NCBI GenBank assembly: GCA_044360195.1
Contig: JBIKKT010000002.1
Coordinates: 31,247 to 95,246, forward strand
Reading direction: 5' to 3'
DNA: 64,000 nucleotides
Source of the DNA: Bdellovibrionota bacterium
Lineage (GTDB): Bacteria > Bdellovibrionota_C > UBA2361 > OMII01
Positions 4,603-37,925 of this stretch are shown piece by piece. The position numbers and the translations under genes were made by a program. Every line of letters starts with the position of its first letter. Positions within the stretch are counted from its first letter, which is position 1. Below the pieces are notes generated by a model. The model worked only from the letters and a program-made list of their open reading frames with translations, was not told the origin of the DNA and did no database searches.

Positions 4603-4610
4603 TTTTGTTG

Positions 4611-4742: not shown

Positions 4743-4782
4743 GGGGGTAGCAATCGGCTTTCAATAAAGACCACTCTCAAGT

Positions 4783-4868: not shown

Positions 4869-5414
4869 TTTTTCTCCTCCTCTGTAATAGCACGACATGT
4901 CGCTAGCCGGTTTTGGCCGACTGTTTTTGGACCGCGGACCTTCCAGGTCCGCTAGATATTTCAGCCAGCACGGAAGTACCGGGCGAAGCTAAACCTTCGC
5001 GGTCCCGGGGGCAGTCGCCAGCATGTTACTAGTAGCACTGCATTTTACGGTTGCGATCTTGCTCTCACCAGATACCGACCTTCCTGGGCCGGCTGGGGTA
5101 TGCTGTCCTCAGTGAAGCTGATCTCAAAAGAATCTGCGAGGCCAATGTTGCGAAAGCCTGCGCGCATAGCCTAGCTTACACTCCAAACTGTGTCCCCATT
5201 CCCACCCCCACGGCTAAGCCTTCGGCTACTGCAACCTCCAAAGCTGGAGGGTAAGGTTAATAACGGAGATACCGCCGCCCGGGGATTTTTACATCATGCC
5301 AGATCTGTAAAGGATCACCTGAGACGGTACATTTGGGGGGTTTATGCCCAACTTCCCCCAACCCACACCCCAGTGTTCCAATTTCCCCCGAATGTGATAG
5401 CATCCCCCGCACTT

Positions 5415-5490
<76 letters not shown>

Positions 5491-18724: not shown

Positions 18725-21700
18725 ATGGACGATTTATTTAGTTTGTTTGAGCGACCTAAGAATCCAATTAAGTTTAATGCACTTAAGATTTCGCTCGCTA
18801 GCCCGGAGAGAATCCGAAGCTGGTCGTTTGGTGAAGTAACCAAGCCTGAGACCATCAACTATCGAACGCTTAAGCCTGAGCGAGATGGTCTCTTCTGCGC
18901 TAAGATATTCGGACCCGTGAAGGACTACGAATGTATCTGCGGAAAGTATAAGCGTCTTCGGCACCGCGGAGTGGTGTGCGAAAAGTGCGGAGTAGAGGTG
19001 ATTCAGTCCAAGGTGCGTCGTGAGCGCATGGGGCACATCGAGCTTGCTTGCCCAGTTGCACACATCTGGTTCCTGAAGAGCTTGCCAAGCCGCATAGGAA
19101 ATATCCTCGACCTGACTCTGCGTGACCTTGAGAAAGTTCTCTACTTCGAGAGCTACGTAGTTACTGATCCAGGGAAGACCTCGCTCAAGTTAGGAGAGCT
19201 TCTGACAGAGCGCGAGTACAGAACTGCTCGAGAGGAGTTCGGTTCGGGCTTTGACGCTGGAATGGGAGCTGAGGCTGTGTTCCTTCTCCTTCAAGCTATA
19301 AACGTTGATGCTGCTTGTGCAGAGCTGCGCGAAGAGATGAAGGACGTCACTTCCGAGGCTAAGAAGAAGAAGTTGGCTAAGCGTTTAAGAGTGTTGAGCT
19401 CATTCCAACAGAGCGGCAATAAGCCTGAGTGGATGATCCTTAACGTAGTACCCGTTATTCCTCCGGACCTCCGTCCGTTGGTTCCACTTGATGGTGGTCG
19501 TTTTGCGACATCAGATCTGAACGATCTCTATCGCCGCGTTATTAACCGTAACAACCGCCTCAAGAGGCTCATTGAACTTAATGCTCCAGACATCATCATC
19601 CGCAACGAGAAGCGCATGCTTCAAGAGTCTGTGGATGCCTTGTTTGACAACGGTCGTCGTGGTCGAACGATTACTGGACCTAACAAGCGTCCGCTCAAGT
19701 CTTTGAGCGATATGCTCAAAGGTAAGGGTGGTCGTTTCCGACAGAACCTGCTCGGTAAGCGCGTAGATTACTCTGGCCGTTCCGTTATCGTGGTTGGTCC
19801 GGAGCTTCGTTTGCACCAGTGCGGTCTGCCAAAGAAGATGGCGCTCGAGCTCTTTAAGCCCTTTATCTACAACAAGCTCGAAGAGCGTGGTTATGTGACC
19901 ACGATCAAGAGCGCTAAGAAGATGGTTGAGAAAGAGAAGCCGGTAGTATGGGATATCCTCGATGAAGTAATTCGCGAGCACCCAGTTCTGCTTAACCGAG
20001 CTCCTACGCTTCACCGTCTCGGTATCCAAGCTTTCGAGCCGATACTAATAGAAGGTAAGGCTATTCAGCTTCACCCACTCGTATGTACTGCATTTAACGC
20101 AGACTTCGACGGTGACCAGATGGCCGTGCACGTTCCGCTCTCGATCGAGGCTCAAGTTGAGGCTCGCGTACTTATGATGTCGACCAACAACATCTTGAGC
20201 CCAGCAAACGGTAAGCCGATCATCGTGCCTTCACAGGATATCGTTCTCGGTCTCTACTATATGACGCGTGAGCGTCCGTTCGCAGCCGGTGAGAATCGTG
20301 TCTACTCGTCTTCAGATGAGGTATGGCTCGCATGGCAGTCAGGGGAGACCCATCTGCAGGCCAAGATTCGGTGCCGCATTGACGGAAAGCTGGAGAGTAC
20401 CACAGTTGGAAGAACACTTCTGTATCACCTCTGTCCGCGTGTGCTCCCATTCTCTCACTTCAACAAGGTGATGAAGAAGAAAGAGATCTCGCAGCTTATT
20501 GATGAAGCGTTCCGAGTGGCTGGTAACAAGGCGACCGTGCTCCTCGCAGACAAGCTCAAGGACAACGGATACTTCTTCGCAACCATCTCGGGAATCTCAA
20601 TCGGTATTCAGGATATGGTTATCCCTGATGCGAAGAAGGGTCTCCTCGGTGAGGCTGATTCTAAGGTCGCAGAGATTGATTCGCAGTACCGTGAGGGTCT
20701 CGTTACGGCGGGAGAGCGTTACAATAAGGTCATCGATATCTGGTCAGATGTAGGAGACCGTATCGCTCAAGATATGATGGAGACTATCTCCACCACAGAA
20801 TTCAAAGACAGCGCTACCGGTGAGATGAAGCAGGGTCCGTCGTTTAACCCGATCTTCATCATGGCTGACTCTGGCGCTCGTGGATCGAGCCAACAGATTC
20901 GTCAGCTCGGCGGTATGCGAGGACTGATGGCTAAGCCAGACGGTTCGATCATCGAGCAGCCGATTAAGGCGAACCTGCGCGAAGGTCTAACGGTCCTTCA
21001 GTACTTCGTGTCAACGCACGGAGCTCGTAAGGGTCTCGCGGATACAGCGCTTAAGACAGCTAACTCAGGTTATCTGACTCGTAAGCTCGTAGATGTAGCT
21101 CAAGATAGTATAATTGCTGAGTACGATTGCGGTTCGGCTGAAGGTCTTGAAACGTCGGCGATGATCGAGGGCGGTGAGGAGATCGAATCCTTGTATAACC
21201 GCATCTTGGGTCGCGTCGCGGCTGAGGATGTTCGCGATACTATCACCAATGAAGTGTTGGTTGAGCGCAATCAGGTAATCGACGAAGAGATCGCGTCTAA
21301 GATCTCATCATCGGGCACTGACACGGTTCTTATCCGTTCAGTACTTACCTGCGAGGCTCAGCGCGGAGTGTGTGGACTGTGCTACGGACGCGACCTTGCT
21401 CGCGGACACTTGGTAAATATCGGTGAGGCTGTCGGTGTTATCGCAGCGCAATCGATCGGAGAGCCAGGAACTCAGCTGACTATGAGAACGTTCCACATCG
21501 GAGGAGCGGCGCTCGGTCGAGCTGAATCAACCTCGCTTGAGGCCCGTTACGCTGGACTCGTTAAGCTTGAGGGCGTGCGTCTTGCTCGCCGTCGGGATGG
21601 TAGCTCGGTGGTTATGAGCCGTAAGGCAGAGATCCTGATTGTCGATAAGGCTGACGGTCGTGAGCGTGAGCGTCATCCGCTTGTATACGGAGCGCGTTTA

Positions 21701-22855
21701 CGCGTTGAGGATGGTGCTGAAGTTAAGAGCGGCGCCCTTCTAACAGAGTGGGATCCGTTTACTATACCTATCTTGAGCGATGTTGCAGGACGCGTTGAGT
21801 GGGTTGACGTTAACGAGTACACCATGGAGGAGCGAACTGACGAGCGCACCGGTTTCGTAGAGCGAGAAATCGTTCAAGCGAAGGATCGTAGCTCGGAGCT
21901 CCGTCCACGAATCGTAATTCACGGTGAGAACGGTGAGAGTAGGGTATATAACGTCCCAGTAGGTATCCGTCTCGTAGTTGAACACAACAGTGATATCGAT
22001 GCCGGAGACGTCATCGCGAAGCGTGAACGTGCAACGACGAAGACTAAGGATATCACCGGAGGTCTGCCGCGAGTTGTAGAGCTCTTCGAGGCTCGTAAGC
22101 CAAAGGATCCAGCAGTTGTCAGCGACGTTGAAGGCGTAGTTGATTTCGGTGAAGATTCACGCGGTAAGCGAAAGATCGTTGTTACTCCGGAGGCTGGTGA
22201 TCCGCGCGAGTATCTCGTAGCCAAGACTAAGCACATCGCTGTGCAGAAGGGTGATCGAGTGAAGGCAGGTGAAGTTCTAACTGACGGATCCATTAACCCG
22301 CACGATATCCTCCGTATCGAGGGAACAAAGGCTCTCGCTGGATATCTTGTTAATGAAGTGCAGGAGATCTACCGATTGCAGGGTGTGCGCATCAACGATA
22401 AGCACATCGAGGTTATCGTTCGTCAGATGCTCAAGCGAGTTAAGATCGCTGAGTTCGGCGACAGTCCGTTCCTCGTAGGCGACAGTGTTGAGAGACTCCG
22501 GGTATCAGCAGAGAATCAGCGAGTTGTAGCAGCAGGTGGTAAGCCAGCTGTGTATGAGCCGCTCCTGCTCGGTATTACGAAGGCAGCTCTCGCAACGGAT
22601 TCGTTCATCTCAGCAGCAAGCTTCCAAGAGACCACAAAGGTTCTTACTGAAGCAGCTGTGTCCGGTAAGGTAGATCACCTACGCGGACTGAAAGAGAACG
22701 TGATCATGGGTCGTCTCATCCCAGCTGGATCTGGTGTTGCGGCTTACGCCGCTCGCCACGTCCGAGTGGAGGGTGACGAGGGCGCAGCCAAGAAGCCAGA
22801 GACGAGCTTCAAGGTTGGACCAACGAACCTGGAGAGCTTGCAAGGCTTGTTCTAA
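18725..22855 (+). CDS. rpoC: DNA-directed RNA polymerase subunit beta-prime
   Basis: 1376 aa. N-terminal Zn finger [23 protein letters not shown] and catalytic [16 protein letters not shown]. Confidence 0.95.
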
Positions 22856-22884
22856 TAGGGGGTTTTGACCTGTCCCGTTAGCAG

Positions 22885-22919
22885 CGGCCTCCCTCGGAAA
22901 CGAGGGGGGCCGTTTGCTT
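22885..22919 (+). terminator. rho-independent terminator after rpoC
   Basis: GGCCTCCCTCG-GAAA-CGAGGGGGGCC followed by GTTTGCTTT. Confidence 0.6.
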
Positions 22920-22983
22920 TGGTGGGTGCTGGTGCTGGGGTATGTCCCAGCATTATGTAAAAGATATAAAACAGCGAGCTAGC

Positions 22984-23319
22984 TTACTGCGAGCAGTCCT
23001 GTGGGCAGCTTTGCGGTGTCTCCGCGCATGGGCACCCTAGTGCCATGCACACCATCTCTTCGCATCTACCGTTTCCGCACACATCTTTGCACGGTTTCTC
23101 TTCCCTAAGAGGACGCGAGCCTTCATCAATAAAACGCATGCCCTCGGCTGATACGCACTGAGCGGGAAGGCTCTTTAGTATCTTGCCCCCCTGAGCCACA
23201 CATTCGCTGAAGGTCCGCGGGGCAGTGGGGGGCGTAAGTGGCTGAGCATGACTTACGCATCCAGCATGTGTCAGCAGGGTTCCTCCAAGGAGGAGAAGGT
23301 AAATGAGAGTTGTTTTCAT
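22984..23319 (-). CDS. small secreted cysteine-rich protein
   Basis: 111 aa. N-terminal signal peptide MKTTLIYLLLLGGTLLTHAGC and 14 Cys in the mature part (CKDVCGNGRCEEMVCMALGCPCAETPQSCPQDC). Confidence 0.4.
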   Translation of the reverse strand: MKTTLIYLLLLGGTLLTHAGCVSHAQPLTPPTAPRTFSECVAQGGKILKSLPAQCVSAEGMRFIDEGSRPLREEKPCKDVCGNGRCEEMVCMALGCPCAETPQSCPQDCSQ

Positions 23320-23427
23320 GGTTCTTTAAAGTTAGGTCTACAGCGTAGAAGCGCGCAGCACAAGAGCTTGCCTCAACAGGCCTAGCCATTGTAAGACACC
23401 CTCACTCATCATACAGGGGGCTAGCCT

Positions 23428-23895
23428 ATGAAACCATGTCGCGCATTATCTCTCCTGTGTTGTTTTCTTCTGAGCTGCGGTGGAACTGCAGCCGACTTCG
23501 CTGGGGTGTGGCAGGGGTCGTTTGTGCGACTTACCAATAGCTGCCAATTTCAGGTGGCTGCGGATATAAACCCACTCTTTCCTCTAACAGTCAATATCGA
23601 CGACCAAGAGGTCTACACGGTCCAAGCTATCGATGGAAGTAAGGCGGTAGGTGGGCAGGGCTCCGGTGAAACGAGCAGCTTTTTAGCCTCAGCAGCGGTC
23701 TTTGGCGACTATGGGTCAATAGCACCATATACGTGTGAATCGGTGCTCTCTTCAGTAGGGTTCCTTGATCGGGGAACAGATAAGGCTACGGTAACGCTTA
23801 AGATCTCGTTTACGAAGTGTCGACCGGCTGGTTCAACCTCCTCTCCTCGAAGCTGCGCCGCCATATACTCAAGTGAGTCTGAAAGGGTGGGGTAG
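23428..23895 (+). CDS. putative lipoprotein
   Basis: Signal peptide with lipobox LLSCGG. 155 aa with no known domain. Confidence 0.4.
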   Translation: MKPCRALSLLCCFLLSCGGTAADFAGVWQGSFVRLTNSCQFQVAADINPLFPLTVNIDDQEVYTVQAIDGSKAVGGQGSGETSSFLASAAVFGDYGSIAPYTCESVLSSVGFLDRGTDKATVTLKISFTKCRPAGSTSSPRSCAAIYSSESERVG

Positions 23896-23898
23896 GCG

Positions 23899-23923
23899 GG
23901 TGGCGTAATCGCCACCTTTTCTC
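23899..23923 (+). terminator. rho-independent terminator
   Basis: GGTGGCG-TAAT-CGCCACC followed by TTTTCTC, starting 4 nt after the lipoprotein stop. Confidence 0.5.
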
Positions 23924-24006
23924 AAGCCGTTGACCCCCTTACCGATAAGACAGGGGTGATGCTCGCTGGTTTAAGGCGCGAGCATTCGTGCCGCTTGGGA
24001 GGGGAT

Positions 24007-25692
24007 ATGAGCGAGTCAACAAAGCAGAAGGTTTCAATAGCAAGCGTTGTTTCAGACGCGCAAAAGATTAGAGATCGGCAAAAAGCTAACCAGCAGCAGG
24101 CTGACCAAACATTCACCCAATCGAATGCATTCGCCCAGATAATGCTTAATGATAGCCTTTCGCCCGAGCAGAAGCGTGACGCGATGGTTGCTCAGCTTGT
24201 CTTCTCCGCAGAGGCAACCAAGGAGCAAAACCGCCAGAAGCTTGATGCCTTTGGCGCCTTTAAGGAGTATCTGCAGGAGCAGCGCAAGATTCTAAACAGG
24301 GAGGGGATTAGACTTCAAGACACCGAGGCGTTCGCCGAATTGCAAAGCGTTGTTGATGAGATGACGAAAGCTAGCCTTGATTTTCAAGAGCGGGCGAAGC
24401 CTCTGATTGAGATATTGTCGGCAGTCTTTGAGATTAGAAAACAAGATAAGATCCCCGATGTCTACAGAGAGATACAGAAAGATAAGGAGTGGTCAGAGGA
24501 GCAGAATAACCGACTTATTGAGCTCGACGATCAGCTTAAAAAATTAGTAGCCGAGAACGAACGGTTGGAGCGATGGAAGGCACAGCTGTCGCAGGATAAG
24601 TCTCTTTTTGGTTTTGGTCCGACTAAGCGCAGCGCCCTTCAGCAGATCGCTCAGATTGACGCAGTCGATAAGGTAAAGACGTCCCAGGCTCTAGCAGATA
24701 CGCTAGAGCATATTCAGAATCAAAAGAATGTAATCGCAGCCGGTCGTAGCTCGGAGAATCCAGAGCTTGTTGAGCAAAAACGCATTTTACGCGAGTTCTT
24801 GAATCTCTCTAAGGAAGAAAATCGAGATAGACAGAAACGTCTCATAGAAGCTGCAGTTACGTATGTCGATACTTCCGATGCTCGGCTGAAGAGCGTTCTT
24901 GGCACCCTTGGACGTCTTGGTAAGCATGCAGAGGTCCTCTCTGATACCAATGGAATATTGAAGAACATGCACCTCGTTATGGATGAGGCGCTGAAGGATG
25001 CAGCTAAGTGCAACGATGACCTTAAACGCAACCTTTCAGAGCAGCCTGGAGATGAATCCGCGATTGCTCGCATGACCCGTGAGGAGAAGCTCGCCGATTT
25101 GAACGAATGCATCGGTCGCTCCGACGACCACGCCGTTGATGTCGCAAATTCAGTTGGTGGGCTCACCAAGCATGCAGTTCAGATACAGGCTTACAAAGAT
25201 ACGATCCGTAATGAAAGCGGTAGTACCAAGAGGCTGCACCTCGAAGGAGTATCGCAGATGGGCGAGCAGCTAATGTCTGTCATTAGTGCTATTTCGTCTG
25301 CGGCAACAACTGAATCACGTTCGCTAGCGGCGGATAACTTCGCTAAAATGGCGGCGCAGAATCAGACTATTATTTCGCAAGAGGTGGTTAAAAATGCCAC
25401 CACAATCGACCTTGAAGCGCAACAGATCTCGCGGCTAGTAGGTGAGCTGCAAGACTATGGTGATGTGTTAAAGGCTTCAAGTGATATAGCGAATGCCGGC
25501 TATGCTCGTATGCGCGATACGATTGGAGCGATTCGAAAGGTATCAGGCGCTGTTCAAGGTGCCATCCAGGACTTAGTCGAGGACAGGGCCGAGGCGCAGA
25601 TCGCGAGCGGAGAGCCAGCCTCCCAGGTTGAGGGCGGAGAAAAGGCACAGACTGGCTTCGTTAATCCTTTTGATAAGATTGGAAACTCATAA
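24007..25692 (+). CDS. long coiled-coil protein of unknown function
   Basis: SD GGGAGGGG before the ATG at 24007 (the ORF track starts at a GTG at 23956). About 560 aa, almost entirely predicted alpha-helical and heptad-rich (Q/E/K/L). No TM segment and no enzymatic motif. Confidence 0.45.
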   Translation: MSESTKQKVSIASVVSDAQKIRDRQKANQQQADQTFTQSNAFAQIMLNDSLSPEQKRDAMVAQLVFSAEATKEQNRQKLDAFGAFKEYLQEQRKILNREGIRLQDTEAFAELQSVVDEMTKASLDFQERAKPLIEILSAVFEIRKQDKIPDVYREIQKDKEWSEEQNNRLIELDDQLKKLVAENERLERWKAQLSQDKSLFGFGPTKRSALQQIAQIDAVDKVKTSQALADTLEHIQNQKNVIAAGRSSENPELVEQKRILREFLNLSKEENRDRQKRLIEAAVTYVDTSDARLKSVLGTLGRLGKHAEVLSDTNGILKNMHLVMDEALKDAAKCNDDLKRNLSEQPGDESAIARMTREEKLADLNECIGRSDDHAVDVANSVGGLTKHAVQIQAYKDTIRNESGSTKRLHLEGVSQMGEQLMSVISAISSAATTESRSLAADNFAKMAAQNQTIISQEVVKNATTIDLEAQQISRLVGELQDYGDVLKASSDIANAGYARMRDTIGAIRKVSGAVQGAIQDLVEDRAEAQIASGEPASQVEGGEKAQTGFVNPFDKIGNS

Positions 25693-25703
25693 CACAGAGA
25701 CGG

Positions 25704-27899
25704 ATGAGCCCCATGGCAGATCGAGTGAACAACGTAACCGTTGACGTCCTTACTCGCGGCTCAGATATTCTGGCGCGGTGCCCGAGCTTTGCGCTAGTCG
25801 GAAGAGACTCTGAGCTGGCCGAGCTCTCGACCGTGCTTATGAAGCTTAGGCGAAGAAACCTTATCGTCACTGGCCGCGGTGGAGTCGGAGTGAGCGCGAT
25901 TGTGCTGGGGCTCCAAGCAAGCAAGAAAAATTTAACCACTCCGGTTGATATCGTGGGAATGCGATTTTTCTGGTTGGATACAGACCGACTGTTTGAATCA
26001 GGGGATAACCGCGCTATTCACGCGGCTTTTGAGCGATCACGACAGACGCTTGCTGCAACTCCGTCTGCTGTTCTAGTAATCGAGGACAGCGCAGATTTTG
26101 TGCGCTCGGCGAGCACAAATGGATGTACGAGTTTGATCCACGGCTTGATGGGCGACTTAAAAGCACAGAAGTACCAGGCTATCTTGGAGACCAGCGATGA
26201 GGGGCTCGGAGAGATCCTGAAATGTGACGGTGACCTGCTCGAAAACTGTACACTCTACGAAGTTAAAGAGCCCGATGCTGAAAGTCTGCGATTGATCGTA
26301 GCACAATCAAAGAACGAACTTGAACGGCACCACAGAGTCAGGGTAAGCGAGGGCGCTCTTGAGGCGGCGGTGCAATTGACCGAGAAATATAAACTCACCG
26401 AGTTACGAGCGCAGCCAGATGCTGCCATCACACTCCTCGATCTCGCGTTGACGCATTTGTGTCGCGACGCGCATATTACTCCCCTGAATATCAAGGAGCT
26501 AAGGGATAACATGTTGAATGCTCCGGCGGTAGAAGCCGAGCAGTTGCAAGGTCAGCTGGCGGCGGCTGAAAAGGAGTGGGATGATCGCCAGCGCCTGGTG
26601 CGCGCACTTTATCGTGAGATAAGTGACGGAGAGGAACAGATTCGACTTCTCCAGCAGACAGTTGTTTCCCTCCGAGACCAGCACACTGCCCGGCTTGGGG
26701 AGCTTAATCGAAATAGGGACACCGCGTCAGGTCAGGCAAGCGGGGGACCACTTGAGGTGTATCGACAGGCAGACACTCCAGAGATGGCTGATGTAAAGAG
26801 GAAGATCTCAACGCTCGAATCGTTGGTAGCAGATGCCACCAGAAAATATGAGCAAAAGGTCGCAGAGGTCTATGCGGGTCTGTCTCTGCACGAATCCCAC
26901 GTGCTAAAATCCTTTAGCATTCTGTCCGGTATTCCTGTTGATAAGCTCACCGAAAACGAGCGCGGTAAGCTGCGAGGCTTACACGAGGTTCTGTCGGCGC
27001 GTGTAGTAGGTCAGCTGGAGCCAACTACCGAAGTAGCGAAAGCTGTAAAGCGTGCCCGCCTTGGGCTAAAGTTGCCGAATAAGCCGTCTGGCACCTTTAT
27101 GTTTCTTGGACCATCTGGGGTAGGTAAGACAGAGCTTGCAAAGTCTTTGGCTGAAGCATTATCTGTTCCCCTTCTACGATTCGATATGTCCGAGTATATG
27201 GAGAAGCATGCTGTTGCTAAGCTTATTGGAGCTCCTCCGGGGTACGAAGGGTATGAGCAGGGAGGAATCCTCACTAATCAAGTTCGTCGAAATCCTTACA
27301 GCGTTGTTCTCTTTGACGAAATCGAGAAAGCTCACACTGATGTTTTTAATGTAATGCTACAGCTTCTTGATGATGCGCGACTAACCGATAGTAGGGGACT
27401 AACGGCCTCCTTCAAGGATACTATCGTTATTATGACCACGAACATCGGCACTCCTCACTTCCTTGACGAAGCCGTCCCGTTTGAGGAGTCAAAAAAGCTA
27501 GCGCTCGCCGATTTGCGAGCCCAGTATCGCCCCGAATTCTTGGGGCGCTTCGGTGGTAACATCTACGCATTCCAGCGTCTTGGCTTTGATGTTTTAGAGG
27601 CGATTGCCCGCAAAGAAGTGCGCCGTATCAACGAGCTCGTTCAGCAGCAGGGGATATCACTTGTAATGGAGCAGGAAGATATTCAGCAGATGGTCAAGGG
27701 GGTCTATGTGGCCCGCGAAGGTGCACGAAGTATTCTAGGTTACCTTGATCGGAGCCTCACCTCCGCTCTGGCAGATCTTATTCTGCGCGAGGGAGGAATG
27801 ACCGGCGAGGTTGTAGCGCGCTTTGATACTGAGTCACGTAGCATACTCATAGACCCTCGTTCAGGTCCGAGAGCTGTGCCGAAGGCTCACGGTGCTTAA
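25704..27899 (+). CDS. ClpB-like AAA+ ATPase lacking the N-domain, with degenerate NBD1 and intact NBD2
   Basis: NBD2 is near-canonical ClpB (FLGPSGVGKTELAK, GAPPGYEGYEQGG, VVLFDEIEKAHTDVFNVMLQLLDDARLTDSRG). NBD1 aligns but has Walker A GRGGVGVSA (no Lys) and Walker B LVIEDSA in place of FIDELH. A coiled-coil M-domain is present. Only about 35 aa precede NBD1. Confidence 0.7.
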   Translation: MSPMADRVNNVTVDVLTRGSDILARCPSFALVGRDSELAELSTVLMKLRRRNLIVTGRGGVGVSAIVLGLQASKKNLTTPVDIVGMRFFWLDTDRLFESGDNRAIHAAFERSRQTLAATPSAVLVIEDSADFVRSASTNGCTSLIHGLMGDLKAQKYQAILETSDEGLGEILKCDGDLLENCTLYEVKEPDAESLRLIVAQSKNELERHHRVRVSEGALEAAVQLTEKYKLTELRAQPDAAITLLDLALTHLCRDAHITPLNIKELRDNMLNAPAVEAEQLQGQLAAAEKEWDDRQRLVRALYREISDGEEQIRLLQQTVVSLRDQHTARLGELNRNRDTASGQASGGPLEVYRQADTPEMADVKRKISTLESLVADATRKYEQKVAEVYAGLSLHESHVLKSFSILSGIPVDKLTENERGKLRGLHEVLSARVVGQLEPTTEVAKAVKRARLGLKLPNKPSGTFMFLGPSGVGKTELAKSLAEALSVPLLRFDMSEYMEKHAVAKLIGAPPGYEGYEQGGILTNQVRRNPYSVVLFDEIEKAHTDVFNVMLQLLDDARLTDSRGLTASFKDTIVIMTTNIGTPHFLDEAVPFEESKKLALADLRAQYRPEFLGRFGGNIYAFQRLGFDVLEAIARKEVRRINELVQQQGISLVMEQEDIQQMVKGVYVAREGARSILGYLDRSLTSALADLILREGGMTGEVVARFDTESRSILIDPRSGPRAVPKAHGA

Positions 27900-27911
27900 T
27901 CGTCGAATTGT

Positions 27912-28736
27912 ATGAGTAGCAGAGATGATCCGACTTTAAAGCGGGCTCGCGAGGAGATGGAGGGTGTATACTCTCGCGCCCGCAAAATCATCGAGGAACC
28001 GCGCCGAAGTAGCACGACAGGTCAGCAAGAGAAGAATGTCCTGCAAGCGCTCGCTGAGATGCAGGAAAATCTGAATTTCTTCAGCCGTCTTCTACGTGGA
28101 GGTCGCGAAGTAGTTGTTGGGGTGTGGCAGCAGGCTCTCGCTCCAGTGTGGAGGTTCGTTGCGCCTCCGCTACGCTTTATCGGACGAAACTACATGCGTG
28201 TGTGGAGTTCCGTGGTGTTTGTTGTCGATCCGTTGACCCGGGAGCGGAGCATTTCTCGAACACGCTCTACGCTGATGCTTGTAGCCACTGTTTTATGTCT
28301 ATCGATATTTACGGATACTCGCTTGGGCGAGGCGGCGCGCTTTTTTTCAACTGAGCCGCTATGTGACTCGGTCTTGATTGCGACATCGCTTAGGACTGAG
28401 GTGTTTTACCTCAGCCAATCAGAAGAAGTAGACCCAGAGCAAAACGTGCACGCAGTTCGTGGTTGTCGATCACGGGGAGAGTGCTCAGAGCTTGACGCAG
28501 TGTACTTTCGAGTGCGACCGCGGTTGGCTCACGACGTATGGAAGCTGTTCGCGTATGGCAATCCAGTATATGTGCCCGACCACGTAGTTGCGCCGATAGC
28601 ACCCGGTATCAACGAGTGTCATGTAACGTATTATGGATATCGGATGACCGCTTCCTGGATAGCTCGAATTTTACGATCCCTTCAGGTCTATCCAACCCTG
28701 TTAGAAGTTAAGTGCTCCCATCTGAATGCTGGCTAG
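27912..28736 (+). CDS. hypothetical protein with a central hydrophobic segment
   Basis: 274 aa, 12 nt after the ATPase gene. One hydrophobic stretch LMLVATVLCLSIF and a Cys/His/Tyr-rich C-terminus (NECHVTYYGYRM). Confidence 0.35.
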   Translation: MSSRDDPTLKRAREEMEGVYSRARKIIEEPRRSSTTGQQEKNVLQALAEMQENLNFFSRLLRGGREVVVGVWQQALAPVWRFVAPPLRFIGRNYMRVWSSVVFVVDPLTRERSISRTRSTLMLVATVLCLSIFTDTRLGEAARFFSTEPLCDSVLIATSLRTEVFYLSQSEEVDPEQNVHAVRGCRSRGECSELDAVYFRVRPRLAHDVWKLFAYGNPVYVPDHVVAPIAPGINECHVTYYGYRMTASWIARILRSLQVYPTLLEVKCSHLNAG

Positions 28737-28838
28737 AAGGCTGCCTAGGGACCTCGAGCGTAAGCTACCTTCAGATCTCGGCTATTCACTCCGTGTAACG
28801 TGGTTGCAAATGCTCACCTGGTGCAATAATCTGACGGC

Positions 28839-30038
28839 ATGTTTAACCCAAAAGTGGCCCAAATGCGCCCCTACACCGCCGCTCGCAAGGCGCAGCTCTT
28901 CTCTGTGCTAGAGCGACCCATAGTGGCCGACCTTACTATCGGGGAGCCGCAGCACACTCCTGATCCAAGAGTGGTTGAGATCCTTAATCAGTCAGCCAGT
29001 GATTCAATAGGGAAGTATCCAAAGACCAAACAGGAGCCTTTCCTTACCGAGGCGATAATTTCAGCCAACGTGAAATCAAAGAAGCTTGCTTCTTCAGCTA
29101 TCTCTGAATCGCAAGTGCTTGCGGGGTTAGGTAGTGGTGAGTTGTTGTATTCGTTTGCTACCGCTTGCCTCGATCCAGAGAAGCCGTATGTGCTCATCCC
29201 TAATCCTGCTTATCAGGTTTATTCATCAGCAACCGAGTTAGCAGGTGGGATCCCGTACTACTTTAATCTGCTGAAGGAGAATAACTTTCAGCCGGATTTG
29301 GCTCGGATTCCTAAGGATATCTTGGCGCGAACGAGTCTGTGTTATCTCAATAGTCCCAATAATCCGTGTGCCGCATCTTATTCGCAGCAGACCTTGCGTG
29401 ATGTTGTTCTGCTTGCGCGTGAATATGGTTTTGCATTGGCTTCTGATGAGTGTTACGCGGAGATATACTTCAACAACAGACCAACAAGTGTGCTTGAAGT
29501 GTGCGCGGCGCTTGATGGTGATAATTCGTTTAAAAATGTTGTGGCGTTTGATACGCTGTCGAAGCGCAGTAGCTTGCCAGGTTTACGCTCGGGTTCAATG
29601 GTAGGTGATGCCGCGTTAGTCTCTCATTACTTAAAAATTCGATTAAGCGAGCGGAAAGTTCTTCCCTTGAATGTGCAACGTGCATCGGCGTTCGCTTGGA
29701 CGAACTTCGATGATGTTGCGAACAATCGATCACTGTACCACCAGAAGTTTCTACTTGCTCGTGAAGCTTTTAAGGGGAGTGGGTGTTCTGAGGCGCTTCC
29801 GGATGGGACCTTTTACTGGTGGCTGGATATCTCGCAGTATAACTCAAGCGACGAGCAATTCGCATTGGATCTCGCAACCGCAACTGGTATCCTCACGTTC
29901 CCGGGCAGTTGCTTTTCGGTTGTCTGTGATGGGGTGAATCCTGGAGCTGGGTTTATCCGCATTGCGCTTATCGATTCAGTCGATGCGACAGCGTCAACCC
30001 TGAAGACTGCTTCGGAATTTATGAGAAATTATAGGTAG
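28839..30038 (+). CDS. dapC: N-succinyldiaminopimelate aminotransferase (class I PLP aminotransferase, DapC-type)
   Basis: N-terminus MRPYTAARKAQLF...LTIGEPQHTPDP...GKYPKTKQEP parallels Bordetella-type DapC. The PLP-Lys motif FDTLSKRSSLPGLRSG is present. Confidence 0.65.
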   Translation: MFNPKVAQMRPYTAARKAQLFSVLERPIVADLTIGEPQHTPDPRVVEILNQSASDSIGKYPKTKQEPFLTEAIISANVKSKKLASSAISESQVLAGLGSGELLYSFATACLDPEKPYVLIPNPAYQVYSSATELAGGIPYYFNLLKENNFQPDLARIPKDILARTSLCYLNSPNNPCAASYSQQTLRDVVLLAREYGFALASDECYAEIYFNNRPTSVLEVCAALDGDNSFKNVVAFDTLSKRSSLPGLRSGSMVGDAALVSHYLKIRLSERKVLPLNVQRASAFAWTNFDDVANNRSLYHQKFLLAREAFKGSGCSEALPDGTFYWWLDISQYNSSDEQFALDLATATGILTFPGSCFSVVCDGVNPGAGFIRIALIDSVDATASTLKTASEFMRNYR

Positions 30039-30043
30039 GTTGT

Positions 30044-31228
30044 ATGTCATCTGATCTCGCGCGGCAGTACTTTGTTGATAACCTCGAGCGCTTAACGGGC
30101 GCTGTACCACACGTTGCCCTGCTCAAAGTATATCTTGATGACCAGCTGATTCGAACGATTGCAAACGTACCCGGACAATCTGGCTCGTTGCGCGTGCTCT
30201 CTCATTTTCAAAGTGGTGGCGAACTTCTTCCGGCGGGCGTGGCAGGTGCTCTTGAAGTGTTTGCTCCTCTTGTTGAAGAGGCTAAGGCTCATCCGGGGAA
30301 ACATCCAACCATCGACCTCCTGCTAGGGCTTGGCGCTCAACAGATCCTACGCATAGAGCAGGTCGAGAGCTCGCCCAATCTTTTCGTGAAGCTATCGGAT
30401 GGGTCGGCGTCGCAAGACGAGAAGCAGAGAGCAGTTGATCTTCTCGATAAGGGACTTATTCGATGTGCCGAAAAGCTACGTGGCTACACGGTAGCGGGTG
30501 ATGGAATTAAGCTCGTTGATACCGGTACATGGGTCACGCAGCCCTATGCGATCGCGTGTATGAATGCTGCTTTCTCAGCTTTCCCGATGGAGAGAATAGG
30601 GGAGTACTTCTTTGATAAGGTACCGCTTAAAACCGAAGGCTGGGTTGAAGAAGATTATCAGAAAGCCGGAGTGCGATTCGTGCCGGGCTCCTTTGCTCGT
30701 AGGGGGGCTTTTATCGGTGCAGGCGCAACGATAATGCCAGGTGGTATCGTAAACATCGGCGCCTACGTTGCCGGCCAGGGTGTCATGATCGATGGTGGCG
30801 CCCGAGTTGGTTCAGGGGCGCAGGTTGGTAAGGGTGTTAAGCTCGGAGCGGGTTCTGGCATCGAGGGGATACTTGAGCCTGCGGGACGCTTGCCTTCGAT
30901 TATAGAAGATAATGTGCGCGTTGGCGCAAACTGCGAGTTGTGCGGCATTATTGAAGAGGGCGCTGTAATCGCCAGCGGCGTAATTATGGCTTCGGGGAAG
31001 AAGATCTTTGATTTACGAACGAACGCCGAAGTTGAGCCGCGCTACATGGCTATCGGCGAGAAGGTGCTTGAGATTCCTTTTATCCCTAAAAACCGTGTGG
31101 CGGTTGGTGGTGTGTACAGCAAGACCGCGCAGCTAGGGATCGATTGTATCGTGTTGCTTGAGAAAGATGCATCCGATACGAGCTTAAGCAAGATTCCCAA
31201 GAATACGGCTCTCTACATATCGATCTAG
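30044..31228 (+). CDS. dapD: 2,3,4,5-tetrahydropyridine-2,6-dicarboxylate N-succinyltransferase
   Basis: Left-handed beta-helix hexapeptide repeats matching DapD (GAFIGAGATIMPGGIVNIGAYVAGQGVMIDGGARVGSGAQVGKGV, LEPAGRLPSIIEDNVRVGANCEL). Confidence 0.75.
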   Translation: MSSDLARQYFVDNLERLTGAVPHVALLKVYLDDQLIRTIANVPGQSGSLRVLSHFQSGGELLPAGVAGALEVFAPLVEEAKAHPGKHPTIDLLLGLGAQQILRIEQVESSPNLFVKLSDGSASQDEKQRAVDLLDKGLIRCAEKLRGYTVAGDGIKLVDTGTWVTQPYAIACMNAAFSAFPMERIGEYFFDKVPLKTEGWVEEDYQKAGVRFVPGSFARRGAFIGAGATIMPGGIVNIGAYVAGQGVMIDGGARVGSGAQVGKGVKLGAGSGIEGILEPAGRLPSIIEDNVRVGANCELCGIIEEGAVIASGVIMASGKKIFDLRTNAEVEPRYMAIGEKVLEIPFIPKNRVAVGGVYSKTAQLGIDCIVLLEKDASDTSLSKIPKNTALYISI

Positions 31229-31519
31229 GGTGGTGTTCGGAAGCGTAGACCTTCCATGTCTACCAGAATCTTACGTGCGTCACCGCAGCGCCTGGTGAAG
31301 CTTCGCGCTCTAAAAGCGCTGTTAGGCGGCCCCCGAAGCCGCCTCTATACTCAAACAGCGCTGGTGCGTTGTCGCGCTTTCCTCAAGTTTATGAGTCAAT
31401 GTTACGTTTTCAAGTAAATAGGTATTCGATAGAGTATGGTAATAAAAGACGCGTCGACACTCTTTTAACCGAATTGAAGATGATTCAGAGTGGCTGCGAG
31501 ATTTTTAGGGGAATCGTAC

Positions 31520-32647
31520 ATGCAAACGTTTGATCCGGTTGAGCTGACCCGATTCTTGCTCCGGCACGACACTACCACTGGGCACATCGACCCGTCTTTT
31601 TTAAATAATTTTATGACACTTCTCTCTGATCGCGGGTTTCGCGTGCACAGTGTGGACGTTGAGGGCGTGCGACACCTAGCTGCAACGATTGGCCCACAAG
31701 AGTCTGCGCTTCGCATGGCGTTCGTCGGTCACTACGATACGGTTCCAGTAGGTGAGGGGTGGACCCGTCCGGCACACGCTGCACACCAGGAAGGAGATGT
31801 GCTCTTTGGCCGGGGTGCAAGCGATATGAAAAGTGGCGACGCTGCTGCGATCTGTGCCGCTGCCCGTCTTGCTTCGAAGGGTGTGCATTCAACAGTTTTT
31901 CTTCCAGGCGATGAAGAAACGTTTTCGCGCGGGATGCCAGCTTTGCTCGAGGCGTTGAAGTTAACGTTTGATTACTGTATCTGTGCAGAGCCTACGTCTC
32001 GGGATCTTCTCGGAGATTGTATTAAATTTGGCAGGCGTGGTATGATACGTGGGACGATCATCCTCAAAGGACAGCAGGGGCACGCAGCCTATGCGCACCG
32101 CACCCCTAATGTTATCCTTCGACTCCCTGAGGTCATAACGCAGCTTGCAAAGCCGTGGAACGATCACTGCCACGGCACGGACACCACATTATCTCTTACG
32201 AATATTACGACCAATAGTACAGCGTCGAATGTGATACCTGGAGCTGTCTACCTTTCCTTCAATCTTCGATTCGCACCGCATCGCAAGGTCGCAGAGATAC
32301 AGCACGAGATTGAGCAGCGACTCGAAGCTAGTACGGTACCGTACGAACTCGTTGTTGATAAGGTCACTGAGCCTTACATGACAGGTGTCGATGCTGATCC
32401 TGCTTCACCTCAGGGGCGACTGATCGCATCCGTCCGCCGAGCGATTCATGAGTTGCTCGCTACAGAGCCGGTATTGAGTTGTGATGGCGGAACAAGTGAT
32501 GCACGCTTTATTGCAGCTCAGGGTGTACCCACCATTGAATTCGGCGTTCCGCACGGGAACATGCATGGCCCAGATGAGTTCGTCTCTGTGCAGGACGTAG
32601 AGCGTCTTACTCAGGTCTATGAGCGGGTGGTTGAGCTGCTGCTTTAG
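31520..32647 (+). CDS. dapE: succinyl-diaminopimelate desuccinylase (M20 family)
   Basis: SD AGGGGAA 6 nt before the ATG at 31520. Metal-site motifs GHYDTVP, GRGASDMKSG and PGDEE. Confidence 0.75.
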   Translation: MQTFDPVELTRFLLRHDTTTGHIDPSFLNNFMTLLSDRGFRVHSVDVEGVRHLAATIGPQESALRMAFVGHYDTVPVGEGWTRPAHAAHQEGDVLFGRGASDMKSGDAAAICAAARLASKGVHSTVFLPGDEETFSRGMPALLEALKLTFDYCICAEPTSRDLLGDCIKFGRRGMIRGTIILKGQQGHAAYAHRTPNVILRLPEVITQLAKPWNDHCHGTDTTLSLTNITTNSTASNVIPGAVYLSFNLRFAPHRKVAEIQHEIEQRLEASTVPYELVVDKVTEPYMTGVDADPASPQGRLIASVRRAIHELLATEPVLSCDGGTSDARFIAAQGVPTIEFGVPHGNMHGPDEFVSVQDVERLTQVYERVVELLL

Positions 32648-32766
32648 AAGGTGTTCTCTTCCTTTTAAGAAGCTAAAAAACAATTCACAACGAGCACAAT
32701 GAGCACGACGAGAGAGGGAAAATTTCCCCTTGCTGGTCTCGTTGTACTCGTTGTGAGTTTTTAGGT

Positions 32767-33975
32767 TTATACCTGCTGGTGTTGAGAGGTGTGTGCAGTC
32801 ATCGTACCGGCGGGTGCGGTCAGCGTTGCACCGGCTGCCCCGGTGAGAACCTCGGTGCCGTGTTGCAGGGCCGCTCGGCGCCATTCGTTGCTTGATGGAC
32901 AGAAGAACTCGCGACTCACATTAAAAGCTGTGCTCGTTAAGCCGGTGTGAGGGTGATTCGCGGAGAAGTTCTCTAGGCACAAGACGGGGAGTAGTCCATC
33001 TGGGTAGGTTCCTATTTCATGTACTAGGCTAGCTGCGCCGTTTTCGGAAAAGATAGTGGCTAATCCGCCTGCTATGCTGCCGTGGACCTTGGAAAAGTAG
33101 GGGATCGTTTTCTCTGGTTGTCGGACTTCAAAGCGCGGCGAGAGAGCAGCAGCGACATCACTGAGCATCCTGTTATTACTCCCCAAAGAGAAAAGGGTGT
33201 TTTCCGAACTATTTCCGAGGCCGGTGTGAATATCGACAAACAGAACTCGCTGAGCAGCCGCTAGCCTCGACTCGAGGAATGACAGCAGGATTTCATTGTT
33301 CTCCTGCAGTCTGCTCCCTCCGTAGAAAGGTGCGCGTGGGTTGGTGTATTGCCCTGGTGATAAAATTTGGAGGTACTTCTTACGAGTTGACTCGTCCGAC
33401 GATGTTAGGAATTCTACTGCTTGCTCAAGGCCGTGTAAGGTTGTGGGTGTCAAGTGGTGCAGCGCTTCGCAGTTGCCGACCGGGTCGGCATTGAAATGAT
33501 ATGTAAAATTTCTATTGAGATCGATGTTATCTTTTGTGGTTCGGCGCTCGTAGGCCATGCCAAACGGGTTAAGCGCATGGACGAGTATGAGCGCTGAGTC
33601 TGGGGGAAGTATCGGCTTCGCAGCAAGTATGTCCAGCTGTATGGCAGATCCGACCCGCCCTTCGCTGCCGTGAACGCCTGAGATGGCTATAACCACACTT
33701 TTGGCTGTACGAGTCGAACCGATCTCGGAGAAATCAATAGCGAGCTCCTCTCCTTTTGGGCCCCGCTCGGTCAAGTTGTGCGAGGTGATAGTGGCACCTG
33801 CACATCGACTTAGGTTCAGAAATCTCTCTCGTGCAGCAGTGTAGTCATGACTGAATCTAAGATTAATAAAATGTTCGTCGACTTCTGTATTTTCGAGGTA
33901 GCAGGCAGGAAGACCTCGAAAGCGTAACTGCGAGGTGCGGTGCTCAAGTAGCGGGGCTGGTGGGTGAGATCTCAT
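32767..33975 (-). CDS. M14-like zinc hydrolase of the succinylglutamate desuccinylase/aspartoacylase (AstE_AspA, DUF2817-like) family
   Basis: Zinc-ligand blocks AISGVHGSEG (HxxE), DLNRNF and FVDIHTGLG. Confidence 0.55.
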   Translation of the reverse strand: MRSHPPAPLLEHRTSQLRFRGLPACYLENTEVDEHFINLRFSHDYTAARERFLNLSRCAGATITSHNLTERGPKGEELAIDFSEIGSTRTAKSVVIAISGVHGSEGRVGSAIQLDILAAKPILPPDSALILVHALNPFGMAYERRTTKDNIDLNRNFTYHFNADPVGNCEALHHLTPTTLHGLEQAVEFLTSSDESTRKKYLQILSPGQYTNPRAPFYGGSRLQENNEILLSFLESRLAAAQRVLFVDIHTGLGNSSENTLFSLGSNNRMLSDVAAALSPRFEVRQPEKTIPYFSKVHGSIAGGLATIFSENGAASLVHEIGTYPDGLLPVLCLENFSANHPHTGLTSTAFNVSREFFCPSSNEWRRAALQHGTEVLTGAAGATLTAPAGTMTAHTSQHQQV

Positions 33976-34733
33976 AAAGCAACTCTTGGTTTACATACAC
34001 CGTGAGCTGCCTGCTGCTCTTTGTCTACGCTATTGGATAATTTGCGCCGTGTAGTGCCCTGGCTGTTAATTGGAAGACTTTGTCCGGCTATTCTGGCAGT
34101 TTGCCCTAGAAGGGCAGCGGTGGTTGCTACCCTTCCGCCTTGTCTGGAGGGCATTAATCGCAGGTGTCGCGCCGGGCAGCGGATTGTTGACTGAAGATAT
34201 AAGGACCGAATCTACTGATAAACCGGCCTAAGTCTATGTTTTTAATCGGCCCCGACCTTGACTCACTTCTGGGCGCATGATACTCCTCGCGAGCAACAAA
34301 TGTTTGCATTTTCATCAGCTGCTCAGTTTTTGAGTAAGGGGTTGAATTAACTGCTTAATATATCAAGCAGAAGATGCACTGCCGCTTCCCGGGTGGTAAC
34401 ATCTTGCGAGCAAACGAGTTGTCAGAGGGTAATGCAAGGGATTCCTAAAGGAGTCCCAAGCAAAAGAGTTGAGCGGAAGACGGTGATACCAAAACCAGGT
34501 TAGCCTTCGCTCACGAGACCATTCTGCCCGGGAGTTACACAGATAGCCATTTGTGATGCGGTTTCTGACCGCGTTCGAAGCGCCCGCTACTCAGTAGTTA
34601 TGAGGTGGGGGGTAAGCGTCGAAGGCTGCTACGCGGCCAATCATTGGCACCGCAACGTCGGTCGGGTTCGGGCTCTTGTAGGGCCTGGGCTTTGAATTGT
34701 TCGCGGAATGTGTTAATCACGGCACCTCTTGGA

Positions 34734-34814
34734 GGGTAGTTCAGCTCGCAAGGTAGAGCTTACCAAGAGGGTCGTTAGAGAGGGTGGTGCCTCTCTAAGA
34801 GAAATGAACTACCC
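34734..34814 (+). promoter_or_regulatory. structured 5-prime leader element upstream of rpsL
   Basis: A 10-bp closing helix GGGTAGTTCA/TGAACTACCC encloses two hairpins (GCTC-GCAAGGTA-GAGC and AGAGAGG-GTGGTG-CCTCTCT). It ends 37 nt before the rpsL ATG. Confidence 0.35.
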
Positions 34815-34851
34815 GATGTGTTTCGCGCAAGAAGGAAGAGGCTAGGCAAAA

Positions 34852-35223
34852 ATGCCAACAATTAATCAGTTAGTTCGAAATCGTCGTCGCAGCAAAACAG
34901 CAAAGAGCAAGTCTCCTGCTCTCGTTCGATGTCCTCAGCGTCGTGGAGTGTGCACCCGTGTGTATACCCAGACACCGAAGAAGCCAAACTCAGCTCTCCG
35001 TAAGGTAGCGCGTGTTCGTTTGACAACCGGTATGGAGGTTACGAGCTACATCCCTGGCGTTGGTCACAATTTGCAAGAGCACTCGGTTGTTCTTATTCGT
35101 GGCGGCCGTGTGAAGGACCTTCCAGGAGTTCGATACCACATCGTTCGCGGAAAGCTTGAGGCTCACGGTGTTCAAGATAGGAAGCAGAGCCGATCTAAGT
35201 ACGGCGCAAAGCGACCTAAGTAG
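34852..35223 (+). CDS. rpsL: 30S ribosomal protein S12
   Basis: [15 protein letters not shown]...[11 protein letters not shown]...[18 protein letters not shown]. Confidence 0.95.
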
Positions 35224-35283
35224 TGAGTAGAAGAGATTTGACGGTAAGCTAAATAAGCTAAGAGTTTTGGTTGAGAGGGGAGA

Positions 35284-35754
35284 ATGTCACGTAAGAAGCG
35301 CGATTTTAAGAGACCGGTAACCGCTGATCCTCGATTCGGTGACGTGGTTGTAGGGAAGGCGATCAATGTGATCATGGACAGCGGCAAGAAGGGCGTTGCA
35401 GAGCGCGCTCTTTATGGAGCTCTCGATCAGATCGCTAAGAAGACTGGCAGCGATGCCGTTGAGGTTTTCCACAAGGCGCTGAGTAATATTAAGCCAGTTG
35501 TTGAAGTTCGTTCGCGACGCGTCGGCGGTGCAACGTACCAGGTTCCAACTGAGGTCCGCGCAGAGCGTGCTCAGTCGCTTGCTTTGCGGTGGTTGAAGGA
35601 CGCTGCTGAGGGTCGTGGGGAGCGCAGCCTCTCTGACCGGCTCGCAAATGAGTTGATGGATGCAACGCAGAACCGCGGCGCAGCAGTTAAGAAGCGTGAG
35701 GATACTCACCGAATGGCAGAAGCCAACAAGGCATTCGCTCACTTTAAGTGGTAA
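35284..35754 (+). CDS. rpsG: 30S ribosomal protein S7
   Basis: 156 aa collinear with S7 ([31 protein letters not shown]). Confidence 0.9.
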
Positions 35755-35789
35755 GCGAGATAGCATAGGAACTAGACGGAGATTATACA

Positions 35790-37883: not shown

Positions 37884-37925
37884 TGTTTTTAATGGTGTTT
37901 TAACTAATTAAAACCGGAGAAAGGC

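Follow-up and report, generated by a model that had tools for sequence, protein, structure and literature searches.

A rare, conserved three-gene module encodes a ClpB-like ATPase with a degenerate first ring and two orphan partner proteins

Few AAA+ machines have been studied as thoroughly as the Hsp100 unfoldases, and to our knowledge all the characterised bacterial members (ClpA, ClpB, ClpC, ClpE, ClpL, ClpG/K and ClpV) are thought to use both of their rings. In ClpB the middle (M) domain couples the protein to DnaK, while ClpV, both of whose rings are active, binds TssC via its N-domain. Among the other AAA+ proteins, NSF combines one catalytic ring with one non-hydrolysing structural ring, the inactive ring being D2, and ESCRT-III proteins bear short C-terminal motifs that are recognised by their ATPase. 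A further double-ring Clp class, ClpI, bioinformatically defined and uncharacterised, is distinguished from ClpB and ClpC in its published description (PMC10149685), which places it in Actinomycetota only and credits it with intact ATPase modules, a variable N-domain, an M-domain of ClpC length and, in some members, ClpP-binding LGF loops. Here we describe a locus from a Bdellovibrionota bacterium that encodes a ClpB-like ATPase of a different kind. It lies in a 64,000-nucleotide (nt) window, that is, the whole stretch of contig JBIKKT010000002.1 that was analysed, in which three plus-strand genes fill positions 24007-28736 with intergenic gaps of 11 and 12 nt. The first encodes a long, predicted all-helical protein (CC), the second a double-ring ATPase and the third a predicted membrane protein (P3). 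The same contig is also found in freshwater metagenomes, and the closest genomes are Bdellovibrionota metagenome-assembled genomes (MAGs). Public annotations label the products 'AAA family ATPase' and 'hypothetical protein', and a full-text literature search found no description of a CC-ATPase-P3 module.

To collect relatives, the genomes of 185,579 species, each represented once, were searched by pattern; 84 relatives were obtained, and 80 loci were kept. The order CC, ATPase, P3 on the same strand was observed in all of the approximately 78 nonredundant loci wherever the contig was long enough. Thus, a ClpB-like ATPase was the next plus-strand gene after CC in every locus, and a profile hidden Markov model (HMM) detected a P3 homolog directly 3' of the ATPase in 70 nonredundant loci; the loci without P3 were exactly those whose contig stops first. 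The median gap between the ATPase and P3 genes was 9 nt. Such a constant order in all informative loci takes the adjacency far beyond chance, and the tightly spaced, co-directional operon proposed in the original prediction was therefore confirmed across several phyla. In addition, the pairwise identities of the three proteins co-varied over 67 loci, with correlation coefficients (r) of 0.89 for CC and the ATPase, 0.84 for the ATPase and P3, and 0.79 for CC and P3. Linkage and co-varying identities together therefore indicate that the three genes behave as one inherited and transferred unit. No fourth conserved gene emerged from an all-against-all clustering of the flanking open reading frames (ORFs), in which no other family was present in more than 10 loci except antisense shadow ORFs of the three genes themselves.

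The hosts of the module comprised Bdellovibrionota, Micavibrio, Geopsychrobacteraceae (Desulfuromonadales) and Bradymonadales, several groups of Alphaproteobacteria (Dongia, Parvibaculaceae, Taklimakanibacter, Maritalea, Plastoroseomonas and the Rhodobacteraceae Mameliella alba and Sagittula) and of Gammaproteobacteria (Woeseiaceae, Wenzhouxiangellaceae, Cellvibrionaceae, Alcanivorax, Pokkaliibacter and Pseudohongiella), and single Verrucomicrobiota and 'Patescibacteria' bins.

The ATPase is a member of the Hsp100/Clp superfamily, yet it is assignable to none of the ClpB, ClpV and ClpA/C families. Pfam recognised AAA_lid_9 (amino acids [aa] 198-284), AAA_2 (aa 460-616) and ClpB_D2-small (aa 627-697), and the only PHROGs match was to a generic Clp family. 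The NCBIfam models ranked ClpB first, followed by ClpA and ClpV, with every score far below the curated cutoff: the ClpB models TIGR03346 and PRK10865 gave 389 and 311 bits against cutoffs of 1232 and 1417, respectively, and the ClpV model TIGR03345 gave 322 bits against 885. There was no Pfam match to Clp_N, and residue 30 of the ATPase aligned with the PDB sequences of ClpB only from ClpB residue ∼171-179 onwards (∼171-186 when Hsp104 was included), the N-domain therefore being missing; the CC gene stops 11 nt before the ATPase gene. Where Staphylococcus aureus ClpC carries the ClpP-docking loop RFAGFGGSSD, the alignment showed a 10-residue gap. An M-domain-like segment of ClpB length was recognised because the ClpB and Hsp104 structures matched the ATPase in one unbroken HMMER stretch (query residues 30-696), whereas the match with ClpC, whose M-domain is shorter, was split in two. 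This segment was poorly conserved within the ATPase family. Both the absence of the N-domain and the presence of an M-domain had been anticipated from the sequence.

The second nucleotide-binding domain (NBD2), anticipated to be near-canonical, was fully canonical. The Walker A lysine, the Walker B aspartate and glutamate and the pore-loop tyrosine were present in 68 of 68 locus orthologs, and the ATPase also retains FDEIEK, the EFLxR arginine and the GAR sensor 2. For its part, NBD1 had been described as having lost both the Walker A lysine and the Walker B DE pair. The first of these losses held throughout the family, the position (V63 in the window) being occupied by C, V, I, S, A or G and never by lysine (0/68), whereas the Walker B pair proved to be changed from DE to ED rather than lost, with an aspartate at the position of the catalytic glutamate in 68/68 orthologs. 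A competent NBD1 on closer alignment would have contradicted the prediction; instead, the residue-level comparison with ClpC revealed further defects, since the arginine fingers and the pore-loop-1 tyrosine are also missing. Family-wide, the arginine-finger positions carried hydrophobic or aromatic residues. These two losses, like the membrane placement of P3 (see below), go beyond what had originally been noticed.

The same picture was obtained with the 120 best database homologs (43-100% identity, ∼680-790 aa), each of which contained exactly one GxxGxGK[ST] motif. At the NBD1 lysine position these proteins carried C (64), I (21), V (18), L (8), M (3), G (2), S (1) or A (1), and lysine in none of the 120. 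The cysteine variant, GxGGVGC[ST], is the one found in most members outside the clade of the window's ATPase, which has valine or isoleucine at this position (aa 63; nt 25890-25892). On this sequence evidence, the NBD1 defects are a family hallmark and not local decay, and their pattern is that of purifying selection on a pseudo-ATPase ring. In general, the constant gene order, the co-variation and the family-wide NBD1 defects support the proposal of a specialised ClpB paralog with a dead NBD1, encoded in a conserved operon.

Neither of the two partners could be assigned to a described family, since CC and P3 gave no match in Pfam, NCBIfam, PADLOC or PHROGs, and P3 gave none in PDB. The module would have been called into question by partners belonging to unrelated, characterised families that do not co-occur with the ATPase; no such family was matched and the co-occurrence held, in keeping with the original view that this is not a described system. 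When 69 diverse CC members were scanned at E values of up to 1, no family recurred, the best being FlaC_arch in 6/69, and a sequence-profile search of PDB with the CC alignment returned only noise. A word index retrieved 54 CC homologs, and an HMM scan of 1.84 billion representatives retrieved 335 clusters at 50% identity, nearly all of them of 530-615 aa.

An AlphaFold2 model of CC, built from a 40-sequence alignment (mean predicted local distance difference test score [pLDDT], 72; predicted template-modelling score [pTM], 0.48), was all-alpha, with about 8 long helices packed as bundles (72-103, 107-145, 149-195, 208-245, 270-344, 352-434 and 440-531 among them). The long helices expected from the sequence were thus recovered, but the proposal that CC is essentially one long coiled coil was only partly borne out. 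The model placed a short non-helical tip at a conserved FGFG (196-207), and a small-residue-rich helix (414-441) was also conserved. CC ends in a predicted disordered tail, with [N/S/D]PF within the final 20 residues in 57 of 68 orthologs. No signal peptide was found in CC, and neither was any hydrophobic hairpin of transmembrane (TM) grade (maximum Kyte-Doolittle value, 0.82). The CC homolog of Pokkaliibacter plantistimulans, WP_110188772.1 (locus L003, 6086-7780), bears the UniRef name 'Methyl-accepting transducer domain-containing protein'. The identification of CC as a methyl-accepting chemotaxis protein was considered and rejected: hhalign of the CC family against Tsr/Tar/Tap gave a probability of 0.5% and an E value of 0.11, and there was no recurrent MCPsignal Pfam match in the 69 members, so that the UniRef label is probably a false positive.

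The AlphaFold2 model of P3 (mean pLDDT, 85.8) showed two helices (7-28 and 36-102), then a hydrophobic one (116-131), and a C-terminal domain rich in beta structure. Hydropathy analysis revealed exactly one TM-grade segment in 57/68 orthologs, in agreement with the one hydrophobic segment noticed originally, and its N-terminal flank was rich in K/R, the predicted topology therefore being N-in, C-out. P3 is thus probably bitopic, with a long cytoplasmic helix, one TM helix and a periplasmic OB-like domain, an arrangement that would place the module at the inner membrane. Identical P3 TM segments (LMVLSTLAFLWILPALISL) were observed in loci L049 and L076, which belong to an 'Alphaproteobacteria' MAG and a 'Pseudobdellovibrionaceae' MAG; this suggests either a recent horizontal transfer of the module or the mis-binning or misclassification of one of the two MAGs.

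The explanation that we favour, tentatively, is that the module encodes a self-contained AAA+ machine, anchored at the inner membrane and driven by NBD2, which would remodel CC assemblies. The ATPase would form a ClpB-type double-ring hexamer in which the NBD1 ring, deprived of normal ATP binding and hydrolysis, would be a structural platform bearing the M-domain, and the canonical NBD2 ring would be the sole motor. Since both the N-domain and the ClpP loop are absent, such a machine would neither pick up general aggregates through an N-domain nor feed a protease. CC, probably a dedicated client or partner, would self-assemble via its long helices, and its disordered tail with the terminal [N/S/D]PF would be the likely site of docking or of the start of threading. 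P3 would set the system at the cytoplasmic membrane by its single TM helix, offering a cytoplasmic helix of ∼65 residues to CC, the ATPase or both, and exposing its OB-like domain, probably disulfide-bonded, to the periplasm. CC would thus assemble at the membrane, and ATP-driven disassembly would recycle it, in a cycle whose logic may be compared with that of ClpV with TssB/C, NSF with SNAREs or Vps4 with ESCRT-III. We infer the physical interactions, the identity of the substrate and the role in the envelope from linkage, co-variation and protein anatomy.

Several observations weigh against this explanation. CC could be an adaptor or a regulator instead of a substrate. Its C-terminal motif was missing in 11/68 orthologs, and of 132 cluster representatives of full length only 40 carried [N/D/S]PF. 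Confidence in the CC model is only moderate (pTM, 0.48), and the folds that it matches are helical bundles of a generic kind. As for P3, the periplasmic placement of its C-terminal domain is deduced only from the positive-inside rule and two conserved cysteines, and a second, weaker hydrophobic segment was present in 7/68 orthologs.

Since the nearest sequence relatives of the ATPase are ClpB, ClpC and Hsp104, and since a full-length M-domain is kept, the module could instead be a specialised stress disaggregase, acting under envelope, oxidative or desiccation stress, with CC and P3 as co-chaperones or adaptors that deliver membrane-proximal aggregates and not as substrates. The cysteine at the Walker A lysine position in most members (64/120) could then be redox-sensitive, and some of the neighbouring genes (DsbA, TerC, Peptidase_M50B and Band_7) are envelope or membrane genes. 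We consider this unlikely, however, because the N-domain and the NBD1 pore-loop tyrosine, both aids to aggregate binding, are absent, and because the M segment is poorly conserved, which would be unexpected if it docked the conserved DnaK. Essentially no RpoH, sigma-E or sigma-54 consensus was found upstream of CC in the 80 loci, and the lack of an RpoH-type promoter counts weakly against a general heat-shock role. Moreover, strict 1:1:1 linkage and co-variation with two orphans are more typical of a dedicated machine, and the module is very rare, with only 84 relatives in the species genomes scanned.

A more specific proposal, and one that we regard as quite unlikely, is a membrane-remodelling or repair cycle built on an Hsp100 scaffold. 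The cytoplasmic helix of P3 would nucleate a CC polymer on the inner membrane or beneath it, the periplasmic OB-like domain of P3 would sense an envelope cue, and the ATPase, with one active ring, would disassemble the polymer via the CC tail motif. Were this true, the module would be a functional counterpart of NSF/SNAREs or Vps4/ESCRT-III that arose independently from ClpB, and categorically new.

The compact three-gene cassette, its patchy phyletic distribution, the signs of horizontal transfer given by the near-identical P3 TM segments of two MAGs, and a genomic context that differs even among close relatives would also suit an anti-phage or abortive-infection system, with CC as a helical effector of the ClyA or translocator type that is latent until it damages the membrane, P3 as a membrane receptor or sensor, and the ATPase sensing infection and activating or restraining the effector. 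IS110 transposases flanked the module in 2 loci, and NBD2 resembles the PADLOC candidates PDC-M37B and DolB. Nevertheless, a defence role appears improbable. The matches of the ATPase to PDC-M37B and DolB were through NBD2 only, CC and P3 being without a match in PADLOC-DB 2.0 or PHROGs, and no copy of CC was found by tblastn in 72,556 plasmids. The neighbours in 60 loci were mostly metabolic or housekeeping genes, and the flanks were not enriched for defence models, with sporadic single PADLOC matches; the 4 matches to mad2 fell in loci whose neighbours include 4 methyltransferases. In the window, the module lies between rpoC and the dap operon. Neither a TM-grade hydrophobic hairpin nor the hydrophobic beta-tongue of ClyA-type toxins was recognised in CC, which has no Pfam match and gave no significant Foldseek match to pore-forming toxins (E > 0.01 and TM-score < 0.3 for ClyA-type toxins); in structure it matched ClyA, AhlC, YaxB/XaxA and IpaB no more closely than it matched CorA, SMC, prefoldin and designed bundles.

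Very improbable is an export or insertion device in which the ATPase would unfold CC and drive it into or across the inner membrane via a P3 oligomer, CC being, for instance, a factor that acts on contact or in predation. In its favour, predatory lineages (Bdellovibrionota, Micavibrio and Bradymonadales) are well represented, P3 spans the membrane and CC has a generic likeness to long helical translocator and toxin folds. Against it, P3 shows nothing like a channel and only one TM helix, CC has neither a signal peptide nor a hydrophobic hairpin, the hosts are for the most part ordinary free-living Alpha- and Gammaproteobacteria, and no other secretion genes are linked to the module.

The positions of the module and of its motifs are collected in Table 1. 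In the window, four plus-strand genes, encoding a lipoprotein, CC, the ATPase and P3, sit between rpoC (18725-22855) and a dapC/dapD/dapE-like cluster (28839-32647). The first of them (23428-23895, plus strand) encodes a predicted lipoprotein of 155 aa, with the signal …CCFLLSCGG and no family match, and was found only in the identical contigs L001 and L002, not beside the module in other taxa. The terminator-like hairpin 3' of this gene, a consensus match only, would mark the boundary at which a separate transcription unit of the module begins. The longest ORF in the CC frame opens at GTG 23956; ATG 24007 was nevertheless taken as the start, since all the CC homologs begin with 'MS.S' at the equivalent position and a strong Shine-Dalgarno sequence precedes this codon. 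In the public annotation the ATPase starts at ATG 25713, giving 728 aa.

The rpoBC and str operons adjoin in many bacteria. Here, ∼12 kb (22856-34851) separate the end of rpoC from rpsL/rpsG/fusA/tuf (34852-39122), and this interval thus looks like an insertion hot spot in the lineage. It contains the lipoprotein gene, the three-gene module, the dap-like cluster and a minus-strand DUF2817 gene. Relatives with 56-73% identity carry the module in other contexts, loci L004 to L007 showing no rpoC match. Within the dap-like cluster, 30044-31228 (plus strand) encodes a DapD-like tetrahydrodipicolinate N-succinyltransferase with hexapeptide repeats, fused to an N-terminal DUF2322 (PRK11830, 167 bits against a cutoff of 204), and the DapC-like and DapE-like neighbours scored near or below the curated cutoffs. 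A tRNA cluster at 4192-5490 comprises Thr-TGT on the minus strand, followed by Thr-GGT, Tyr-GTA and Trp-CCA on the plus strand, and lies upstream of the ORFs that precede rpoB.

Across the family, the immediate neighbours were heterogeneous (GATase_4, SDR, methyltransferase, Band_7, Peptidase_M50B, TerC, DsbA and IS110). A same-strand downstream ORF of 245-285 aa was present in many loci and was considered as a fourth member, but it encoded an SDR, a methyltransferase, GATase_4, Peptidase_M50B or TerC and not one family, and was rejected. Same-strand membrane-protein genes were often observed 3' of P3, with TerC in two Bdellovibrionota loci and a Peptidase_M50B-like gene in two others (an Alphaproteobacteria MAG and an Alcanivorax MAG), and Band_7/SPFH was among the immediate neighbours in 4 of ∼60 loci; these genes may hint at a membrane theme or be a coincidence. 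Two unrelated loci, L084 (4467-5426, minus strand) and L085 (5829-6893, plus strand), one from a Bdellovibrionota relative and one from Pseudohongiella, had a gene with a Ser/Thr protein-kinase domain in the ∼2 kb upstream of the module; this gene was not conserved family-wide.

Table 1. Features of the module, with positions in the window unless another locus is named
Feature	Position	Strand	Description	Evidence
Terminator-like hairpin	23899..23913	+	GGTGGCGTAATCGCCACC then T-run; 3' of upstream lipoprotein gene	Consensus match only
Shine-Dalgarno sequence	23998..24005	+	GGGAGGGG before the CC start codon	Read from sequence
CC	24007..25692	+	561 aa, predicted all-helical bundle, orphan family	ORF
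CC N-terminal N-x-F motif	24124..24132	+	N40-A41-F42; N40 invariant; N-x-[FY] in 62/68 orthologs	Alignments
CC C-terminal tail	25582..25671	+	Predicted disordered (aa 526-551, pLDDT < 50); ends in NPF motif (aa 553-555)	
ATPase	25704..27899	+	ClpB-like double-ring AAA+, 731 aa, no N-domain, no ClpP loop	ORF, Pfam, NCBIfam, PDB alignment
NBD1 Walker A, degenerate	25872..25895	+	G57-RGGVG-V63-S64, Lys to Val; ClpC GEPGVGKT vs ATPase GRGGVGVS	Residue-level alignment
NBD1 pore loop			ClpC KYRG vs ATPase DNRA (Tyr to N)	Residue-level alignment
NBD1 Walker B, altered	26070..26087	+	V123-LVI-E127-D128, DE to ED; ClpC ILFIDE vs ATPase VLVIED	Residue-level alignment
NBD1 arginine fingers			ClpC ERRF vs ATPase ENCT (RR to NC)	Residue-level alignment
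M-domain-like segment	26556..26903	+	aa ∼285-400, ClpB length	HMMER alignment
NBD2 Walker A, canonical	27108..27131	+	GPSGVGKT (K475)	Lys in 68/68
NBD2 pore loop	27240..27254	+	G-Y514-E-G-Y	Tyr in 68/68
NBD2 Walker B, canonical	27303..27320	+	VVLFDE (D538, E539)	D and E in 68/68
P3	27912..28736	+	274 aa, predicted bitopic membrane protein, orphan family	ORF
P3 TM helix	28260..28316	+	aa ∼117-135, after Arg-rich flank RERSISRTRS	Hydropathy
P3 C-terminal domain	28389..28721	+	OB-fold-like beta domain, aa ∼160-270, conserved Cys236 and Cys268	
Membrane-protein genes after P3 in other loci	L004 7747-8493; L084 12176-12913; L048 10712-11458; L054 10539-11342			

The ATPase family has kept NBD1 as a domain but shed all of its elements for catalysis and for gripping substrate, and it is thereby a natural experiment on the roles of the first ring and the M-domain other than ATP hydrolysis. 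Its fixed linkage to two orphan families, one of them predicted to span the inner membrane, offers a defined and tractable candidate for the client of a motor of the ClpB type, and perhaps a new process associated with the envelope of Gram-negative bacteria. Direct testing is feasible, since the module occurs in cultured hosts (Pokkaliibacter plantistimulans, Mameliella alba, Taklimakanibacter and Plastoroseomonas hellenica).

Among the described systems, ClpB/Hsp104 (TIGR03346) shares with the ATPase the double AAA+ ring, AAA_lid_9, a middle segment of ClpB length, a canonical NBD2 with a GYxGY pore loop, ClpB_D2-small and the lack of a ClpP-docking loop. It differs in having the N-domain and the NBD1 Walker A lysine, catalytic glutamate, arginine fingers and pore-loop tyrosine that are absent from the present family; in addition, the module's ATPase is strictly linked to two orphan genes, shows no detected heat-shock promoter and scores 389 bits against the curated cutoff of 1232. 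ClpA, ClpC and ClpE are set apart by the IGF/LGF ClpP-docking loop, which is not present in the NBD2 of the ATPase. ClpI is likewise an uncharacterised double-ring Clp class, but it differs from the module's ATPase, which has a dead NBD1 and no N-domain and occurs in Proteobacteria and Bdellovibrionota.

The likeness to NSF-SNAREs and Vps4-ESCRT-III is conceptual, in that a hexameric AAA+ protein would dismantle helical-bundle assemblies at a membrane, and the CC tail motif is reminiscent of the C-terminal motifs of ESCRT-III. In contrast to NSF, the dead ring of the module's ATPase is the first and not D2, and the protein falls within the Hsp100 clade and outside the NSF/Cdc48 and meiotic clades. 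CC showed no sequence relationship or significant fold relationship to SNAREs or ESCRT-III/PspA, and neither PspA_IM30, Snf7 nor a hairpin fold was recovered for it. ClpV (TssH) with TssB-TssC is a parallel in logic only, in that an unfoldase derived from ClpB serves one structural client encoded beside it and not general aggregates, and the resemblance to ClpV with VipA/B suggested in the original prediction holds as an analogy only: the ATPase has no N-domain, no type VI secretion system families were present in the Pfam content of the neighbours, and CC is helical and unrelated to the sheath proteins. The module would thus resemble ClpV in being an Hsp100 unfoldase dedicated to co-encoded partners, and its novelty would lie in the two orphan partner families and in a first ring that appears universally dead.

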